From Escherichia phage EP01, in the sequence record OM135583.1: 64,000 bases of DNA; one strand, 5' to 3'. Of the stretch, positions 2,319-49,379 are shown in pieces. Under the pieces are notes generated by a model. The model worked only from the letters and a program-made list of their open reading frames with translations, had not been told where the DNA came from and did no database searches. Made by a program: the position numbers and the translations under genes. Every line of letters starts with the position of its first letter. Position 1 is the stretch's first letter.

Positions 2319-2332
2319 GGGGCCGAAGCCCC
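2319..2332 (-). terminator. stable tetraloop hairpin GGGGC-UUCG-GCCCC (RNA stabiliser / weak terminator)
   Basis: Plus-strand GGGGCCGAAGCCCC; 5-bp GC stem with UUCG loop on the minus transcript; between two early ORFs. Confidence 0.5.
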
Positions 2333-2338
2333 TTATCA

Positions 2339-2932
2339 TTATTTCAGAGAATTAATGTATTCCTGAACATCGGCAGAGGTGGTTTCAACCCCGGAAATAT
2401 TACCGTTAAAGGTTTCAACTCGAGCAAGAGTATCTTCAATATCAACCTTAGTTAGCGCTGCGATTTCAACTACATCATCAGCAGTACTAATTCCAAGGGC
2501 ATTTGCCGCACGAGTTTCACGGATATATTCCAATTTAACTGCAAGTTCTTGGCGAGCATCATCTAACTCAACTACTTTCTTGGCGATTTCAATTCGCATT
2601 TCAGCATACCCATCAGCTTTAGTAGTCAGCTGTTCAGCTGTTCGACGATATAGCAAGCCAAGTTTAGCATGCATTGTTACATCTTGACCTTCGGAAAGAA
2701 GCTTGCGAATTTCACGCTCTTTTGATTCAGCCTGTTTATTCTTTTCAACAATAAGTTCACGAATACGTTTTTCTTCATTAATAGATTTAACAGAAGCAGT
2801 TTTTAGGTCTTTAATTTTATCAAGTAATTTTGCTGCTGCAGCGGTATACTGTTCTTCAACAGATAGATTTTTAGCCATAGCAGAACCAAGTTTAGTGCGA
2901 ATAAAATCAACAATTTTCTTCAGTGTGTTCAT
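2339..2932 (-). CDS. hypothetical coiled-coil early protein
   Basis: 197 aa; K/E-rich heptad-like sequence throughout; followed by GGGGC-UUCG-GCCCC hairpin. Confidence 0.6.
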
Positions 2933-2975
2933 AGTATTTCCTTAGGTTAATTAAGATTTAAAATCCATGAGAGTA

Positions 2976-3152
2976 TTATACTCCGGATAGTTTGTAAACT
3001 ATTTCAACATCGCCTTTTGCTGCTTTATAACCTTCAGCCCAAGATACAACCGAGTTTTTATCTGAAGATTCAAATTCTGGCATTGGACTTTCATCAATGT
3101 TCACACAGTATGTTTCTTCATTTTCGTCAAACCAAATAGTTAAAGTAGTCAT
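2976..3152 (-). CDS. small hypothetical ORF (about 58 aa), below the ORF-track cutoff
   Basis: Found by manual reverse-complement reading; ATG at 3152 preceded by GGAGAAATAA Shine-Dalgarno; degenerate promoter/stem-loop cassette copy upstream (3153-3221). Confidence 0.35.
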   Translation of the reverse strand: MTTLTIWFDENEETYCVNIDESPMPEFESSDKNSVVSWAEGYKAAKGDVEIVYKLSGV

Positions 3153-11482: not shown

Positions 11483-11490
11483 TATAAATA
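11483..11490 (+). promoter_or_regulatory. late promoter TATAAATA (gene 53)
   Basis: Exact TATAAATA 29 nt upstream of ATG. Confidence 0.7.
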
Positions 11491-11497
11491 GATAATA

Positions 11498-11505
11498 TAT
11501 TTATA
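11498..11505 (-). promoter_or_regulatory. late promoter TATAAATA (gene 4), divergent from the gene 53 promoter
   Basis: Plus-strand TATTTATA = TATAAATA on minus strand, about 27 nt upstream of gene 4 ATG. Confidence 0.65.
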
Positions 11506-40108: not shown

Positions 40109-40390
40109 CTACGCAATCTTAACTCGACGGTTGATGATGTCACGGAAGTCAATACGATTTTCTTGGATTTTCAGCCAGTTACCAGATTTGTCTTTGGTAT
40201 GGGTAGAATATTCACCGTTCCACCAGAAGTCAGTAGCATAAGCCATGGTTTCATATTTCTTAACTAGGGCATTCACTGCATTACCGTTAGGATTGGAACC
40301 ATATTTTTCTACCAGGGCTTTGATGTCTTTATCAAGAGCGGACAGAGTAGTACGAATAAAGTTTAACTTGTTCATTTTTAATCTCCTCAT
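40109..40390 (-). CDS. hypothetical small early protein inserted between genes 23 and 24
   Basis: 93 aa ORF on the opposite strand to the flanking late genes; driven by its own copy of the early promoter/stem-loop cassette (40406-40435). Confidence 0.6.
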   Translation of the reverse strand: MRRLKMNKLNFIRTTLSALDKDIKALVEKYGSNPNGNAVNALVKKYETMAYATDFWWNGEYSTHTKDKSGNWLKIQENRIDFRDIINRRVKIA

Positions 40391-40477: not shown

Positions 40478-41761
40478 ATGGCTAAAATCAACGAACTTCT
40501 GCGCGAATCAACCACAACGAATAGCAACTCAATCGGTCGCCCAAATCTCGTTGCTTTGACTCGCGCTACCACTAAATTAATATATTCTGACATTGTAGCA
40601 ACGCAAAGAACTAATCAACCTGTTGCTGCTTTTTATGGTATCAAATACCTTAACCCAGATAATGAATTTACATTTAAAACTGGTGCTACTTACGCTGGCG
40701 AAGCTGGATATGTAGACCGAGAACAAATCACAGAATTAACAGAAGAGTCTAAATTAACTCTCAATAAAGGCGATTTATTCAAATATAATAATATCGTTTA
40801 TAAAGTATTAGAAGATACACCATTTGCTACCATTGAAGAAAGCGATTTAGAATTAGCTCTTCAGATTGCAATTGTTCTTTTAAAGGTTCGCCTATTTTCT
40901 GACGCAGCGTCAACAAGCAAATTTGAAAGCTCTGATAGCGAAATTGCTGATGCTAGATTCCAGATTAATAAATGGCAAACCGCAGTTAAATCTCGTAAAC
41001 TTAAAACTGGTATCACAGTTGAATTAGCACAAGATTTAGAAGCAAATGGATTCGATGCTCCTAATTTCTTGGAAGATTTGCTTGCAACTGAAATGGCGGA
41101 TGAAATCAATAAAGATATTCTACAGTCTTTGATTACAGTATCAAAACGCTATAAAGTTACAGGAATTACTGATACCGGATTCATTGATTTGAGTTATGCA
41201 TCTGCACCTGAAGCTGGTCGTTCATTATACCGAATGGTATGTGAAATGGTTTCGCATATCCAAAAAGAATCAACTTATACAGCAACGTTCTGCGTTGCTT
41301 CAGCTCGTGCCGCTGCGATTCTTGCTGCATCAGGTTGGTTAAAACATAAACCAGAAGATGATAAATATCTTTCACAAAATGCCTACGGGTTCTTAGCTAA
41401 TGGTTTACCGCTTTATTGCGATACTAACAGCCCATTAGATTATGTAATCGTTGGCGTGGTAGAAAATATTGGCGAAAAAGAAATTGTTGGATCAATTTTC
41501 TATGCCCCGTATACAGAAGGTCTGGACTTAGATGACCCTGAACATGTAGGTGCATTTAAAGTTGTAGTTGATCCAGAAAGTTTGCAGCCATCTATTGGTT
41601 TATTAGTTAGATATGCTTTATCTGCAAATCCTTACACTGTAGCAAAAGATGAAAAAGAAGCAAGAATAATTGATGGTGGAGACATGGATAAAATGGCGGG
41701 TCGTTCAGATTTGTCTGTTTTATTAGGTGTTAAGCTACCAAAAATTATCGTTGATGAATAA
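40478..41761 (+). CDS. 24: capsid vertex protein gp24
   Basis: 427 aa; late promoter TATAAATA at 40442; terminator downstream. Confidence 0.93.
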   Translation: MAKINELLRESTTTNSNSIGRPNLVALTRATTKLIYSDIVATQRTNQPVAAFYGIKYLNPDNEFTFKTGATYAGEAGYVDREQITELTEESKLTLNKGDLFKYNNIVYKVLEDTPFATIEESDLELALQIAIVLLKVRLFSDAASTSKFESSDSEIADARFQINKWQTAVKSRKLKTGITVELAQDLEANGFDAPNFLEDLLATEMADEINKDILQSLITVSKRYKVTGITDTGFIDLSYASAPEAGRSLYRMVCEMVSHIQKESTYTATFCVASARAAAILAASGWLKHKPEDDKYLSQNAYGFLANGLPLYCDTNSPLDYVIVGVVENIGEKEIVGSIFYAPYTEGLDLDDPEHVGAFKVVVDPESLQPSIGLLVRYALSANPYTVAKDEKEARIIDGGDMDKMAGRSDLSVLLGVKLPKIIVDE

Positions 41762-41767
41762 AACAAA

Positions 41768-41790
41768 GGGACCGAAAGGTCCCTTTTTAT
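41768..41790. terminator. bidirectional rho-independent terminator between gene 24 and rnlB
   Basis: GGGACC-GAAA-GGTCCC followed by TTTTTATTT; U-rich on both flanks. Confidence 0.75.
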
Positions 41791-42795
41791 TTAACTTACC
41801 AATTCAATCCAAGCCGGACGAAGTACATCTTGTACCATTTTAACTAATTCCTTTTTAATCAAAGAAGGATTATCAGCTTGAGTTAGAGTAATACCTTCAC
41901 GAGAAGTTTCTTCCAAAATATCTTGCACAGTTAGTCCCATCACCTTTCCAAAATCCTTCGGACCAATTTCGCCAATTTTAGAAATAACGTTATTTACTCG
42001 GTTCAGTGTAACGTAGCAAGCTAAAATTCCCAGCAATTTATTATCAGCTTCTGACAGCTCAACTTTAGCTTTAATAGGCTTATCAGACTTTTTCTTTTCA
42101 CTAAATTTAGAGTTCTTGCATTTAATCGCTACGCGATTGCCATTAGGCATCCAAGAAGGATAACAAGGTTTCAATACATAACCTTCAGCGGTAAATACTT
42201 CGCCTTTTGCTTCAGCATTCCAAACGCATTTATTTGCATCAACTAATCCAGCATGGTCTACTGTAAAATTATAATCCTGGACGACAGAATCTAAATCATT
42301 TGGCAATTTAATAAGTTCTTCAAATTTACCACGACCCAAAAGTGGAGCCATTTTAAATTTGAATGTATTACAGAATGATTCCATCATATAATCATCGACA
42401 TAAGTCACATCACCACTTTCTGTAGTAACAATAATGTCAAATACATAAAAATCTTTATCACCATAATCGACATTCTTCTGAATGCCAGGTCCAGCGAATT
42501 CGCCGAAGACTTGATAAGATACAACTGCTGAAGTTTCCATAATATCTTGTACTGCTTTAATGGAATCAGCGTAATTCTTTAGAATAATTTCATACCCAAA
42601 GAAATCTTCAGCAGGAAGAATCGGTCCAGTACGTTTAGCACAAGTTGCTTTATCGCGTTCAATAATCAGTGAGAAATTTGTACCATGAATCTTTTCACGA
42701 GCTACCCATTCGCCGCCAGTCAATCCTAAACTATAAAGTTTTTCAATGAATTTAGAATTATAATGATTTTCAAGACTGCTATACTTTTTAAACAT
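41791..42795 (-). CDS. rnlB: RNA ligase 2 (Rnl2)
   Basis: 334 aa; nucleotidyltransferase motif I around EKIHGTNFS; T4 rnlB length and position. Confidence 0.9.
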
Positions 42796-42804
42796 AATTA
42801 ATCC

Positions 42805-43083
42805 TCAAAATGTAATTTCTAACCAATCACCATCACGCTGGTCACTATTGACTTTAAAGCTAAATCCTTCTTTTCTCAGCCAATCACCAATTTCTTCAGT
42901 AATCAATTTATCACGAGCAGTACAATAATAACTAAAATATGTTTTACCTTGTTCAGCTGCTTTATTAGCAAGTTCCGAAAAATCTTTAATAAAACACTCT
43001 AGTTTAAACTGTTTACTTTTAAGTGCTTTTTCGCGTAATTGATTAGCAAAAGATTCATTTTCATAAAGATCATACTGTTCCAT
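42805..43083 (-). CDS. hypothetical protein (T4 24.2 position)
   Basis: 92 aa ORF; synteny. Confidence 0.6.
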   Translation of the reverse strand: MEQYDLYENESFANQLREKALKSKQFKLECFIKDFSELANKAAEQGKTYFSYYCTARDKLITEEIGDWLRKEGFSFKVNSDQRDGDWLEITF

Positions 43084-43285
43084 TTTTCACCTTTTTATTA
43101 ATATGTCTTTTTCTATAGACAACTTTTTCTCGAGTCTCAAATTTATTCTTAGCAGTCATAGCTCGAGCCCATAATACAGCCACTTCTTTTGCCTGTAAGT
43201 TCAATTCACGAGCAATTTCAATGAATGACTTTCCAGACTCATGGAGTGTAAACACCACAACCTCAGTTCTCATAATCAATCTCAT
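43070..43285 (-). CDS. hypothetical small protein, possible helix-turn-helix (T4 24.3 position)
   Basis: 71 aa; segment SFIEIARELNLQAKEVAVLWARA resembles an HTH. Confidence 0.55.
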   Translation of the reverse strand: MRLIMRTEVVVFTLHESGKSFIEIARELNLQAKEVAVLWARAMTAKNKFETREKVVYRKRHINKKVKNGTV

Positions 43286-43354
43286 GTTATCGAGTTGGTG
43301 CCATTATATACATCGTTTTCTGATTGTGTTTTGTGTGCTTTCAAAATGAAGAAA

Positions 43355-43368
43355 GGGGCCGAAGCCCC
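43355..43368 (-). terminator. stable tetraloop hairpin GGGGC-UUCG-GCCCC downstream of hoc
   Basis: Plus-strand GGGGCCGAAGCCCC, identical to the hairpin at 2319-2332. Confidence 0.5.
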
Positions 43369-43373
43369 TAAGA

Positions 43374-44225
43374 TTATGGATAGGTATAGATGATACCAGT
43401 TTCTAAAGCAGTTTTATGAATGATGTATCCATTGCGCGATTCTTGAACATCAACTTCTGGATAGTCTTTCATCATCTTCTGAAGAGTGTAACGATGCAAG
43501 TAATATTTACTATCTGGGTCGTCAGTTTTCCAATCTTTACCTTCTTCGGTCATTTTTTGGATTTCATCCATAACCCACCAACCGCACCAGATATAAGCTG
43601 AAGTACGATGTGGAAGAGGATGAACATAAGGTAATTCACCTTCTGGTTCTTGAGCAACTTTATCATTCACAGTCAGTGATACTTCATTCGAAGTAACTTC
43701 CTTTGCATCATAATCTGTCGCGGTTACTTGAGCCACACACTTAATTGTTTTAACTCCGCTTGTGGAAGGAGTGTAATTAAATGTAGCGGAAGTTGCTTCA
43801 CTAACAGGAGAATCATCTACATACCATTGATATGTAGCAGATGCGCCTGATGGTTGAGAAGCTAAGGCAGCAGTAAATTGAACTGGGGTTCCAATTACTC
43901 CAGCAGCAGGACTAGCAGGAGTTACAGCTAAGGTAGTTGTCTGTGTCTTATTTTGAACTGTGATAGTTGTAGAAGCTTCTGCTGTTTCAGCATCAGAATC
44001 AGGAATAGTATTTGTTGCAACTACTTTAATAGTCTTTTGACCGGCAGGTCCTTTTAATACATAATCAAAAGTTGCTTCAGCTCCATCTTGTGGAACATTA
44101 TCTACAGTCCAAGCATAGGTAATAGTTCCACCTCCAGTTTCACCACTGGGTGTAGCAGTAAACTGCTGAGTCTGATCTATAACTCCAGTAGGTGTTTTAG
44201 GAGTTATATCAACTGTAAAAGCCAT
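43374..44225 (-). CDS. hoc: highly immunogenic outer capsid protein Hoc (short form)
   Basis: 283 aa; two tandem Ig-like repeats plus conserved C-terminal capsid-binding domain (PYVHPLPHR...GIIYTYP). Confidence 0.85.
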   Translation of the reverse strand: MAFTVDITPKTPTGVIDQTQQFTATPSGETGGGTITYAWTVDNVPQDGAEATFDYVLKGPAGQKTIKVVATNTIPDSDAETAEASTTITVQNKTQTTTLAVTPASPAAGVIGTPVQFTAALASQPSGASATYQWYVDDSPVSEATSATFNYTPSTSGVKTIKCVAQVTATDYDAKEVTSNEVSLTVNDKVAQEPEGELPYVHPLPHRTSAYIWCGWWVMDEIQKMTEEGKDWKTDDPDSKYYLHRYTLQKMMKDYPEVDVQESRNGYIIHKTALETGIIYTYP

Positions 44226-44234
44226 AAGTTATCC

Positions 44235-44915
44235 TTATTTTAATGTTACGAAAGAAGAGTTGCGTGTTTCACGAATTAAAACTGATCCGTCACGGTTAAT
44301 GTAGTAAATTAAGCTAAATAAAGTTTGGTGTGCTGACGCGTGTTCAAAACTAGTTGGGTGAGATTTCCAATCCGGAGTTTCAGCAATCCATTGATAAATC
44401 CACCAAGGAACAGTACAGAATCCTGGATTTTTTCCAATCAACTGAAGATTCGGGCTAAAGTTTTCCGGAAGAGTAAATACAGACGGCTTTTCAGATTCAA
44501 TAATCTCAGCTACAGCCTGCTCAAATTTTTCTTCAACAAAAGGAGTATCTTCAATCAAAACATCGATATTTTCAGGAATTTTATCCGTTTCTACCACTTC
44601 AATTTTAATGTCAGATTTAACCGGAGAATCAATTAGAAGTGCTGCTTCTGGATTGACCTCTTCATCGTCATATTTTAATCCCTCTGCAGCATCAGCAGCA
44701 TTAATTAAGTCTTTAATAGATAACCCATCAGTCTCTGGCATAGGTTCACTAGCGAGCTTCTGGAGGGCTTCTTCAATATCAACAACGATATTATCAAAAG
44801 ATTTATTCTTTTTGACCTTTATACCAAACTGTTCAGCATATTCAGTTAATTTAGCTTTAGCTTCTTTATTATCATCAAGAGCCTTCAGCTCTGCAATATA
44901 ATCTTTATCTATCAT
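44235..44915 (-). CDS. inh: Inh-like protein (inhibitor of prohead protease)
   Basis: 226 aa acidic protein at the T4 inh position. Confidence 0.6.
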   Translation of the reverse strand: MIDKDYIAELKALDDNKEAKAKLTEYAEQFGIKVKKNKSFDNIVVDIEEALQKLASEPMPETDGLSIKDLINAADAAEGLKYDDEEVNPEAALLIDSPVKSDIKIEVVETDKIPENIDVLIEDTPFVEEKFEQAVAEIIESEKPSVFTLPENFSPNLQLIGKNPGFCTVPWWIYQWIAETPDWKSHPTSFEHASAHQTLFSLIYYINRDGSVLIRETRNSSFVTLK

Positions 44916-44918
44916 AAT

Positions 44919-44926
44919 ATTTCCTC
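44919..44926 (+). promoter_or_regulatory. TATAAATA late-promoter-like box upstream of segE
   Basis: Exact box 39 nt upstream of segE ATG. Confidence 0.4.
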
Positions 44927-44964
44927 AGTATAAATATAGATATATTTATTACTCGGAAAATAGT

Positions 44965-45582
44965 ATGTATCACTTTGTATATGAAACGACAAATCTAATA
45001 AATGGTAAAAAGTATATAGGAAAACACTCTACTGATGACTTGAATGATGGCTACCTTGGTTCCGGTAAGGCAATTCAGCAGGCTATAAAGAAATATGGTG
45101 AAAAGAATTTCTCTAGAACAATACTAAAAGAGTTTAAAACTTCCGAAGAAGCGTACATGTATGAAGAAGAAATTATAACTCCTGAACTAATAAAAAGCAA
45201 AAATTATTATAATATGAAACCTGGTGGAATTGGTGGAATTGTTATGACTGCAGAGGTTATAGCAAAGATGAAAGAATCTTCCGCTAAGAGATTTGAAAAC
45301 TCACCGGGCACGGTATTAGGTACAACTTGTTACACCAATGGAACTAAAAATATTTTTATTAAACCCGGAGAACTTGTTCCAGAAGGATTTGTAAAAGGGA
45401 TGGTTCATCTTAATAGAAAGTCCAGAAAAGGATGTAAAGTCAAACCGACTACCACAGGAACTTTTTGGGTCAATAATGGAGCAATAAATAAATTAATACA
45501 ACCAGACGGTATTATTCCCGATGGATTTATTAAAGGTCGTCTCATGAAAAGAGACTCTAAAGGCAAATTTAGTAAGGCATAA
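44965..45582 (+). CDS. segE: GIY-YIG homing endonuclease (SegE-like)
   Basis: 205 aa; GIY-YIG module (YHFVYETTNLINGKKYIGKH); position upstream of uvsW. Confidence 0.8.
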   Translation: MYHFVYETTNLINGKKYIGKHSTDDLNDGYLGSGKAIQQAIKKYGEKNFSRTILKEFKTSEEAYMYEEEIITPELIKSKNYYNMKPGGIGGIVMTAEVIAKMKESSAKRFENSPGTVLGTTCYTNGTKNIFIKPGELVPEGFVKGMVHLNRKSRKGCKVKPTTTGTFWVNNGAINKLIQPDGIIPDGFIKGRLMKRDSKGKFSKA

Positions 45583-45584
45583 TT

Positions 45585-47093
45585 ATGGATATTAAAGTAC
45601 ATTTTCACGACTTCAGTCATGTACGCATCGATTGTGAAGAGAGCACGTTCCACGAATTAAGAGATTTCTTTTCGTTTGAGGCCGATGGATATAGGTTTAA
45701 TCCTCGCTTCAGATATGGCAACTGGGATGGACGAATCCGTCTTTTAGATTATAATCGCCTTCTTCCGTTTGGTTTAGTCGGGCAAATTAAAAAGTTCTGC
45801 GATAACTTTGGCTATAAAGCCTGGATTGACCCACAAATTAACGAAAAAGAAGAATTATCAAGAAAAGATTTTGATGAATGGCTTTCTAAATTAGAAATCT
45901 ATTCAGGAAATAAAAGAATTGAACCGCATTGGTATCAAAAAGATGCAGTGTTCGAAGGATTAGTTAATCGTCGTAGAATTCTTAATCTTCCAACATCCGC
46001 AGGTAAATCCTTAATTCAAGCTTTGCTTGCACGTTATTATTTGGAAAATTATGAAGGTAAAATTCTTATCATTGTTCCAACAACTGCTTTAACAACTCAG
46101 ATGGCTGATGACTTTGTTGATTATCGTTTATTCAGTCATGCAATGATAAAGAAAATTGGCGGTGGAGCATCAAAAGATGATAAATATAAAAATGATGCAC
46201 CGGTAATTGTTGGTACATGGCAAACTGTAGTAAAACAACCAAAAGAATGGTTCTCACAGTTTGGAATGATGATGAATGATGAATGCCATCTTGCCACAGG
46301 AAAAAGTATTTCATCTATCATATCAGGTTTAAATAACTGCATGTTCAAATTTGGTCTATCGGGTTCATTGCGTGATGGCAAAGCTAATATCATGCAGTAT
46401 GTTGGAATGTTTGGTGAAATATTTAAGCCAGTAACGACTTCTAAATTAATGGAAGATGGACAAGTAACTGAGTTAAAAATTAATAGTATTTTTCTTCGCT
46501 ATCCTGATGAGTTCACTACTAAATTAAAGGGAAAAACTTACCAAGAAGAAATAAAAATTATTACTGGGCTCAGTAAAAGAAATAAATGGATCGCTAAATT
46601 AGCTATTAAACTTGCACAAAAAGATGAAAACGCTTTTGTCATGTTTAAACATGTATCACATGGTAAAGCTATTTTCGATTTAATTAAAAATGAATACGAT
46701 AAAGTTTATTACGTATCAGGAGAAGTTGATACTGAAACCCGTAATGTAATGAAAACTTTAGCTGAAAACGGTAAAGGAATAATTATAGTAGCTAGTTATG
46801 GTGTATTTTCTACTGGTATTTCAGTTAAAAATCTGCATCACGTTGTTTTAGCGCACGGCGTTAAATCTAAAATTATTGTATTGCAAACAATAGGTCGCGT
46901 ATTACGTAAACATGGTTCTAAAACAATCGCAACGGTCTGGGACCTCATTGATGATTGCGGTGTTAAGCCAAAATCTGCTAATACGAAAAAGAAATACGTT
47001 CATTTGAACTATCTTTTAAAACACGGCATTGATCGTATTCAGCGATACGCAGATGAAAAATTTAATTACGTAATGAAAACAGTTAATTTATAA
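45585..47093 (+). CDS. uvsW: UvsW DNA/RNA helicase (SF2)
   Basis: 502 aa; Walker A LPTSAGKS; DECH box (MMNDECHL); synteny. Confidence 0.93.
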   Translation: MDIKVHFHDFSHVRIDCEESTFHELRDFFSFEADGYRFNPRFRYGNWDGRIRLLDYNRLLPFGLVGQIKKFCDNFGYKAWIDPQINEKEELSRKDFDEWLSKLEIYSGNKRIEPHWYQKDAVFEGLVNRRRILNLPTSAGKSLIQALLARYYLENYEGKILIIVPTTALTTQMADDFVDYRLFSHAMIKKIGGGASKDDKYKNDAPVIVGTWQTVVKQPKEWFSQFGMMMNDECHLATGKSISSIISGLNNCMFKFGLSGSLRDGKANIMQYVGMFGEIFKPVTTSKLMEDGQVTELKINSIFLRYPDEFTTKLKGKTYQEEIKIITGLSKRNKWIAKLAIKLAQKDENAFVMFKHVSHGKAIFDLIKNEYDKVYYVSGEVDTETRNVMKTLAENGKGIIIVASYGVFSTGISVKNLHHVVLAHGVKSKIIVLQTIGRVLRKHGSKTIATVWDLIDDCGVKPKSANTKKKYVHLNYLLKHGIDRIQRYADEKFNYVMKTVNL

Positions 47094-47108
47094 GGGCTTC
47101 GGCCCTTT
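47094..47108 (+). terminator. UUCG tetraloop hairpin after uvsW
   Basis: GGGC-TTCG-GCCC followed by TTTGG. Confidence 0.5.
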
Positions 47109-47349
47109 GGAGAAAAAGATGTTACTAGAATTTAAACAATTTCTTTATGAAGCTTCTATTGATGAATTTATGGGTAAAATTGCCTCTTGTCAAACATTAG
47201 AAGGTCTAGAAGAACTTGAAGCTTATTATAAGAAAAGAGTTAAAGAAACTGAATTAAAAGATACTGATGACATCTCTGTGAGAGATGCTTTGGCAGGAAA
47301 AAGAGCTGAATTAGAAGATTCAGACGATGAAGTAGAAGAAAGCTTTTAA
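47107..47349 (+). CDS. uvsW.1: UvsW.1 small acidic protein
   Basis: 80 aa directly downstream of uvsW after a UUCG hairpin. Confidence 0.75.
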   Translation: MEKKMLLEFKQFLYEASIDEFMGKIASCQTLEGLEELEAYYKKRVKETELKDTDDISVRDALAGKRAELEDSDDEVEESF

Positions 47350-47404
47350 ATTAAAAAAGGCCCAACCAAAAAGGAAGGGCCAAAACTATAGACTAAAGGT
47401 CACA

Positions 47405-47572
47405 CTATAGCAAAAGTTGTGTTTCATTTAATTGTTCTTCCGAACTTTCTGAAACTGGTAGTTCTTTAATGTAATTATAGCAAGGCCCAGGATGTACAGG
47501 ACCTTTGTCTGTTTCAACAACCAATGCAGAATCGATTGGAGTTTTACAGACAACACAAATCTTATCTGACAT
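47405..47572 (-). CDS. small Cys-containing ORF (55 aa), below the ORF-track cutoff
   Basis: Manual translation MSDKICVVCKTPIDSALVVETDKGPVHPGPCYNY...; CxxC plus a third Cys; downstream of the uvsY operon on the same strand. Confidence 0.4.
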   Translation of the reverse strand: MSDKICVVCKTPIDSALVVETDKGPVHPGPCYNYIKELPVSESSEEQLNETQLLL

Positions 47573-47600
47573 GATTGTCTCCTCTAAATTATATATCTAT

Positions 47601-47825
47601 TTATATAACTCTCATATGCATATCAATGCCCATATCTTTAGAATAAAAATATTCATCAAGATATCCGGCAAATTTTCCTTTAATATAAAGTACATCTTCA
47701 CCGCATGGGTGGTCGGCCAGGATACGAATATCCTGACGCTTGAGATTATACTTTTTCATTAAGAATTGAATTTCCGTTTCGAATTCTTCTTCATAATTAA
47801 AAGCATCATCAATGCTATATTTCAT
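47601..47825 (-). CDS. hypothetical protein downstream of uvsY (uvsY.-1 position)
   Basis: 74 aa; start overlaps uvsY stop. Confidence 0.6.
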   Translation of the reverse strand: MKYSIDDAFNYEEEFETEIQFLMKKYNLKRQDIRILADHPCGEDVLYIKGKFAGYLDEYFYSKDMGIDMHMRVI

Positions 47826-48238
47826 TATTTTCCAGCCTCAAATGCTCGCATGTCTTGAATATGCTTAATAGCAAATCCACGTGATTTAATAGCATCAAGA
47901 GCTCCGCTACAGAAATCCAATAAAATTCCCCAATATTGTAATGAAGTATCAACTTTTAAAACATCCTTATCAGCTGATAGAACTGTCTTCATTTCTGATT
48001 TCTCATAACGGTCCATACTAAATTCATCACCATCTCCTCGTCCCGAGTAGTAGTCTAATTTAGCTTTAAGAGCAACTTTTTTCTGTGCATCAATTCTAAG
48101 CATTTCCTTTTTAATACTTGAATGCTTATTAAGCCATTTACTATATAACATCACATTATTAGCTGCTTCATACTGTAATTTAGTCGAATCTATAAACACA
48201 TCTTTCTTCAATTCTTCTTGAAGATCTTCTAATCTCAT
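47825..48238 (-). CDS. uvsY: UvsY recombination mediator
   Basis: 137 aa; N-terminus MRLEDLQEELKKDVFIDSTKLQYEAANNVMLY matches my recollection of T4 UvsY; MotA-type middle promoter upstream. Confidence 0.95.
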   Translation of the reverse strand: MRLEDLQEELKKDVFIDSTKLQYEAANNVMLYSKWLNKHSSIKKEMLRIDAQKKVALKAKLDYYSGRGDGDEFSMDRYEKSEMKTVLSADKDVLKVDTSLQYWGILLDFCSGALDAIKSRGFAIKHIQDMRAFEAGK

Positions 48239-48268
48239 ATTGTTCTCTATTCAATTGTTATTGGATGG

Positions 48269-48294
48269 ACTTAGATTCATTATACCACGTTTAC
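48269..48294 (-). promoter_or_regulatory. MotA-dependent middle promoter for uvsY
   Basis: Minus-strand reading AATGCTTCA (MotA box) about 13 nt upstream of TATAAT. Confidence 0.55.
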
Positions 48295-49349: not shown

Positions 49350-49357
49350 ATATTTAT
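49350..49357 (-). promoter_or_regulatory. late promoter TATAAATA (gene 26), overlapping the gene 51 promoter
   Basis: Palindromic TATTTATAAATA; minus-strand box at 49350-49357. Confidence 0.65.
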
Positions 49358-49361
49358 AAAT
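49354..49361 (+). promoter_or_regulatory. late promoter TATAAATA (gene 51)
   Basis: Exact box 19 nt upstream of ATG. Confidence 0.7.
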
Positions 49362-49379
49362 AGAATAAAAGGAGCATCT

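Follow-up and report, generated by a model that had tools for sequence, protein, structure and literature searches.

The segE locus and its genes

The stretch of DNA analysed here, referred to below as the window, covers 64,000 nucleotides (64 kb) of Escherichia phage EP01 (OM135583.1) and includes the genes hoc, inh, segE, uvsW and uvsW.1 in the local order found in phage T4 (Table 1). This region is 97–98% identical to hundreds of Tequatrovirus genomes, for example Shfl2, Lv5cm and Kha5h. The initial annotation had taken the central reading frame for the homing endonuclease gene segE, which our comparisons bear out: the product aligns with T4 SegE without gaps at 200 of 205 identical positions (98%), leaving five amino-acid substitutions, and the frame matches Pfam family PF19835 (SegE_GIY-YIG) at 36.8 bits (5.5e-09; cutoff 25) and the homing endonuclease family phrog_314 at 4.3e-43, with PF01541 scoring 21.3 bits, slightly below its cutoff of 22.6. 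The position in the inh/uvsW locus and the flanking genes are also those of T4 segE, which supports orthology.

Table 1. Features of the hoc to uvsW.1 region, with positions in the window
Feature	Position	Strand	Basis or remark
hoc	43374-44225	-	Hoc-like head decoration gene, 283 aa
inh, inhibitor of prohead protease	44235-44915	-	phrog_1051, 2.1e-101
T4-type late promoter box TATAAATA	44929-44936	+	exact match; corresponds to -13 to -6
Predicted +1 (an A) of a late segE-uvsW transcript	44942	+	predicted from the -13 to -6 numbering of PMC2988020
AATAAATA, A(-13) box variant, candidate late promoter of inh	44950-44943	-	27 nt upstream of the inh ATG (44915)
Segment present in the window and T4, missing from segE-less relatives (632 bp)	44953-45584	+	alignment and binned identity
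segE, free-standing GIY-YIG homing endonuclease, 205 aa	44965-45582	+	ORF, Pfam, PHROG, identity to T4
Internal AATAAATA within segE, candidate secondary late promoter of uvsW	45483-45490	+	94 nt upstream of the uvsW ATG
uvsW helicase gene	45585-47093	+	UvsW_N 8.4e-44 and helicase domains; 2 nt after the segE stop
5' part of uvsW, unusually diverged from segE-less relatives	45585-45750	+	binned identity
uvsW.1	47119-47349	+	

The T4 genome differs from the window in carrying segD between genes 23 and 24. The window has no segD, and where T4 has this gene in antisense we detected a 93-aa minus-strand ORF without assigned function (40109-40390) that matches phrog_6003 (7.2e-50). The Hoc-like gene varies widely in length among close relatives: it encodes 283 aa here, the T4 gene 376 aa, and the genes of several relatives 376-472 aa.

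The Shine-Dalgarno sequence of segE is weak (GGA, 44955-44957), and uvsW has the ribosome-binding sequence AAGG at 45574-45577, seven bases upstream of its ATG. Folding of the segE leader revealed no hairpin over the ribosome-binding site (z = -0.08 and -0.35 against shuffled sequences), and a sequestering hairpin of the I-TevI type was rejected since the folds were no better than those of the shuffles. Pattern searches of the 49 nt between inh and segE (44916-44964) found neither a sigma-70-like nor a MotA-box (middle) promoter; the stretch from the late box to uvsW had no sigma-70-like or MotA-type pattern, and 41614-48279 had no MotA-type pattern. Because the upstream gene inh is divergent, co-oriented read-through cannot reach segE. 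No terminator was found between the late box and uvsW, the segE-uvsW junction included, and the sole terminator-like match (45729-45742), which is weak and lies within uvsW, was set aside. Farther downstream, the uvsW stop codon is immediately followed by a GGGC-UUCG-GCCC tetraloop hairpin (47094-47107), and a second G+C-rich hairpin lies 3' of uvsW.1 between converging genes (47359-47383), within an 86-nt fold with z = -2.8.

Late promoter boxes between inh and segE

The initial annotation had reported an exact late box upstream of segE on the same strand, and the box is indeed there. Its first base lies 36 nt before the A of the segE ATG and 28 nt separate the two elements, so that the distance of 39 nt given earlier was a miscount. 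The form discussed throughout is the perfect TATAAATA; TATCAATA is an example of a mutated form. In T4 late promoters, an 8-bp box lies roughly one helical turn upstream of the start site, and an A/T-rich segment comes after it; a -35 element is not required, and A is tolerated at -13 (PMC2988020). Among the 50 T4 late sites listed in the same source, 32 are perfect and 9 carry A(-13), the most frequent documented variant (PMC2988020). Downstream of the segE box runs TAGATATATTTATT (44937-44950), in which 13 of 14 bases are A or T, and the succession of box, A/T-rich stretch, Shine-Dalgarno sequence and ATG is the pattern seen at the other gene-proximal boxes of the window. Since the box occupies positions -13 to -6, transcription is predicted to start at A44942, and the start near 44933 proposed in the initial annotation would fall inside the box itself. 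On this anatomy and its conservation, TATAAATA upstream of segE is very probably a real late promoter of the T4 type, as predicted from sequence.

We also detected a second box, the variant AATAAATA, which faces inh on the opposite strand and has a predicted +1 at 44937. Its candidacy as a promoter is backed by A(-13) being the commonest documented variant and by the placement of AATAAATA in the window, where three of eight sites are promoter-proximal; it is the only one-mismatch variant enriched near gene starts. A late promoter upstream of inh has been mentioned previously (PMC2988022). In most relatives outside Tequatrovirus this minus-strand partner is an exact TATAAATA, and in Tequatrovirus, including the window, it is AATAAATA.

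The arrangement is deeply conserved. A scan of IMG/VR with UvsW recovered 31 loci at 72-99% protein identity, each with an exact TATAAATA on the same strand as uvsW. Where no gene has been inserted (28 loci), the box lies 36-44 nt from the uvsW start, and in the other three (L010, L011 and L012), which have an inserted endonuclease ORF, it lies upstream of that ORF. Mosigvirus LF82-41 likewise carries this box in front of a segE-like gene of 243 aa that occupies the same site. When 20 distinct intergenic sequences from several T4-like genera were stacked on the box, the only invariant columns were TATAAATAT, one T, and TATTTAT-A; the conserved unit is therefore a near-palindrome made of TATAAATA, 6 bp and the inverted box. 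Because this inverted pair is conserved and its minus-strand member is supported as a promoter, the region between inh and uvsW or segE is a conserved and, from its sequence, predicted bidirectional late promoter, with starts expected at 44942 (+) and 44937 (-).

Each box of the pair sits in the first transcribed bases of the RNA predicted from the other. Two further opposed pairs of exact TATAAATA boxes lie between divergent genes, at 11483-11505 (boxes at 11483 and 11498) and at 49351-49362, one of them with a 7-bp spacer and the other with overlapping boxes, so bidirectional late promoters appear to recur in this genome. Across phages, three or more diverged endonuclease variants have taken up the intergenic site between inh and uvsW; in L011 and L012 (approximately 2331-3000; UvsW 78% identical) a different segE-like ORF is found at this site and uvsW starts with GTG.

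Late expression of segE, as the initial annotation had suggested, is consistent with data from T4, in which the inh-segE intergenic sequence is identical. Time-resolved RNA-seq and proteomics assign T4 inh, segE and uvsW to the class "late-RNA_late-Protein" (PMC9697503, Table S2), and SegE, UvsW and Inh share the sampling point at which the proteins first appear (PMC9697503). A review places the promoter from which T4 segE is transcribed in non-coding DNA 5' of the ORF (PMC2988022), and late-promoter expression of UvsW has been described (Derr & Kreuzer 1990, as cited in PMC3016281). The T4 GenBank records hold no promoter features at the inh-segE site; for T4 as a whole, a dRNA-seq preprint gives 150 start sites (10.1101/2024.04.04.588121).

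Probable insertion of segE behind a conserved promoter

We found that segE is sporadically distributed and sharply bounded. A BLAST search of 44850-45650 against 50,697 phage records returned 766 records, of which only 168 span 80% or more of the segE query; the remainder match the flanks only. Most of the partial matches are restricted to query positions 1-103, corresponding to 44850-44952 of the window, at up to 100% identity. When the segE-less phages T2, fPS-90 and SA20RB were aligned with the window and T4, all five were identical up to ...TATAAATATAGATATATTTATTAC, which ends at 44952, and the same holds for four segE-less IMG/VR contigs (L006-L009). Past this point the segE-less phages continue with ATGGTATTTAGAC and the ATG of uvsW, whereas the window and T4 continue with TCGGAAAATAGT and the ATG of segE. 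Binned identity against T2, L006 and L008 places a sharp left junction at 44952/44953, with 50 of 50 bases identical to its left, so that the sequence shared with segE-less phages extends 16 bases past the box. An IMG/VR pattern scan in which the box was masked by N recovered only the same four Tequatrovirus contigs.

The late promoter of uvsW in T2, fPS-90 and SA20RB has the same box, the same flanks to 44952 and the same inverted partner facing inh, and its spacing is about equal (36-37 nt from box start to the uvsW start codon across segE-less phages, 37 nt to the annotated uvsW ATG in the three aligned here); the depositors of fPS-90 and SA20RB annotated this box as a predicted late promoter. 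The difference lies downstream, where the first gene of these phages is uvsW, while the window has the 632-bp segE segment in between and diverges over the first ~165 nt of uvsW. The inserted segment comprises the segE leader, the segE ORF and a new ribosome-binding region for uvsW.

On the right side, positions 45585-45599 are mostly gapped in the alignment with segE-less relatives, and the three full 50-nt bins of uvsW at 45600-45749 are 72-86% identical, compared with about 96-100% for the rest of the gene. This diverged flank looks like a foreign or cleavage-resistant segment carried along with segE, and it fits what would be expected beside a homing-endonuclease gene whose target lies there. 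SegE reportedly cuts the 5' end of uvsW in phage RB30, and T4 DNA less efficiently (Kadyrov et al. 1997), which agrees with the diverged uvsW segment. The target gene of SegE is listed as uvsW (PMC2988022, Table 1), and published accounts locate the target, in phages lacking segE, either between inh and uvsW or at the 5' end of uvsW. For T4 against RB30, both a site-specific cut in the allele without segE and homing during mixed infection have been described (literature including PMC2988022).

Because the same box stands at about equal distance upstream of uvsW in phages lacking segE, it does not belong to segE, and the promoter of its own that the initial annotation had implied for this gene gives way to an older one. 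The box is very probably a pre-existing, conserved late promoter of uvsW, downstream of which segE was inserted. With the box conserved upstream of uvsW even where segE is missing, segE looks like a promoter-less cassette that separates uvsW from its late promoter. The identical left flank could in principle reflect co-conversion that homogenised the flanks, not ancestry. Taking the anatomy, conservation and insertion boundaries together, we hold with considerable confidence that the box is a functional late promoter of the gp55 type, the ancestral driver of uvsW, and that segE is a promoter-less cassette inserted behind it.

The initial annotation had also allowed that TATAAATA might be an accidental A/T-rich match without promoter activity, with segE transcribed from elsewhere. 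An accident would be in keeping with an A/T-rich genome, with the location of 8 of the window's 24 exact boxes inside ORFs, and with the chance-level frequency of one-mismatch variants as a class (215 observed against 200 expected). Exact boxes, however, are well in excess of the 10.4 ± 2.95 expected from dinucleotide-preserving shuffles, none of 100 of which reached 24, and 13 of the 24 are followed within 60 nt by a co-oriented ORF start on a simple non-overlapping ORF map of the window, a situation that applies to 3.7% of all positions. The gaps between these 13 proximal boxes and their ATGs are mostly 20-28 nt, with a mode of 28 nt, and the segE box shares exactly this canonical gap with four other proximal boxes. 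At the expected frequency of about 8e-5 per position and strand (10.4 per 128,000), a 60-nt upstream window would contain a box by chance only about 0.005 times. The box also stays invariant among diverged relatives while its flanks vary, the inh-segE region offers neither another promoter pattern nor a source of read-through, and T4 segE belongs to the late class; a chance match is thus scarcely credible.

Two other readings accept a promoter and assign it differently. According to one review, segE is among the endonucleases with "endonuclease-specific" promoters in upstream non-coding DNA (PMC2988022), in which case the promoter would have come with the segE cassette to a site that previously lacked it. 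We consider this quite improbable, as the box and the 16 bases after it are 100% identical in segE-less phages in which it is annotated as the late promoter of uvsW, relatives from other genera (UvsW 72-78% identical) carry the box with no endonuclease gene, and the break between segE-bearing and segE-less sequences falls downstream of it. The same review describes a promoter for the downstream gene embedded in segE (PMC2988022), and uvsW may for that reason not depend solely on the upstream box. The internal AATAAATA is the sole candidate that we saw for this embedded promoter and may be the element meant. The upstream box might then serve mainly segE, with uvsW transcribed chiefly from the internal site, a division that is compatible with an ancestral uvsW promoter and that we regard as unlikely but worth keeping in view. 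In its favour, A(-13) is well represented among the listed T4 late sites, and at the homologous place the divergent endonuclease variant of L005 and L010 (243/260 aa), which uses GCT for the alanine, carries an exact TATAAATA, 69 nt upstream of uvsW from box start to ATG. The motif in the window, however, follows from the conserved codons for A-I-N-K, its 94 nt to the uvsW ATG fall outside the 12-38 nt gap of the other proximal boxes, one-mismatch boxes are no more frequent than chance, and the terminator-free junction leaves the way from segE into uvsW clear. If used, the internal box would add to the upstream promoter, not substitute for it.

Predicted expression of segE and uvsW and comparison with known systems

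We suggest that the upstream box originally provided for late expression of the UvsW helicase, and that segE would have been inserted 16 bp downstream of it, before the uvsW start codon, in such a way that the 28-nt spacing between box and ATG was kept. Late in infection, RNA polymerase with gp55 and gp33, activated by the gp45 clamp, would initiate at about 44942 and produce a transcript carrying segE, then uvsW and possibly uvsW.1. As segE comes first on this predicted transcript, SegE would be a late product of the first cistron, with uvsW read as the second, 2 nt downstream of segE, from its own Shine-Dalgarno sequence. The UvsW helicase switches T4 replication from an origin-dependent to a recombination-dependent mode, and in segE-bearing phages it is probably the second cistron behind a selfish gene.

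In T4 the order inh-segE-uvsW is the same, the box is included in the identical intergenic sequence (locus reviewed in PMC2988022), and the segE stop and uvsW start are 2 nt apart as in the window. Late expression of segE and the arrangement of the locus are already known from T4, since the locus is that of T4 segE, found here in a closely related phage. The value of our analysis is thus mostly one of correct annotation, refining the grouping of a promoter and adding no discovery.

Comparison with I-TevI, the endonuclease of the td intron, sets segE apart in its regulation. I-TevI has a hairpin that sequesters its ribosome-binding site in earlier transcripts and an operator that overlaps its promoter (PMC2988022), whereas the predicted RNA structure of segE is not significant (z about 0) and no co-oriented transcription unit lies upstream. 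By analogy with the I-TevI operator, SegE may repress the shared bidirectional late promoter by binding on it or close by. SegE might still bind there because the left part of the target region, including both late boxes, is unchanged in segE-bearing genomes; we offer this as a speculation that is highly unlikely to hold, though if true it would couple the amounts of UvsW helicase and Inh to the endonuclease.

A closer likeness is found among the promoter-less endonuclease cassettes, which are inserted between genes, co-oriented with their neighbours, and expressed from an existing promoter as part of a polycistronic message (PMC2988022). The segE gene is absent from this class in that review, and the comparative data presented here put it there: since the promoter is the ancestral and widely conserved late promoter of uvsW, segE should be counted with the promoter-less cassettes.
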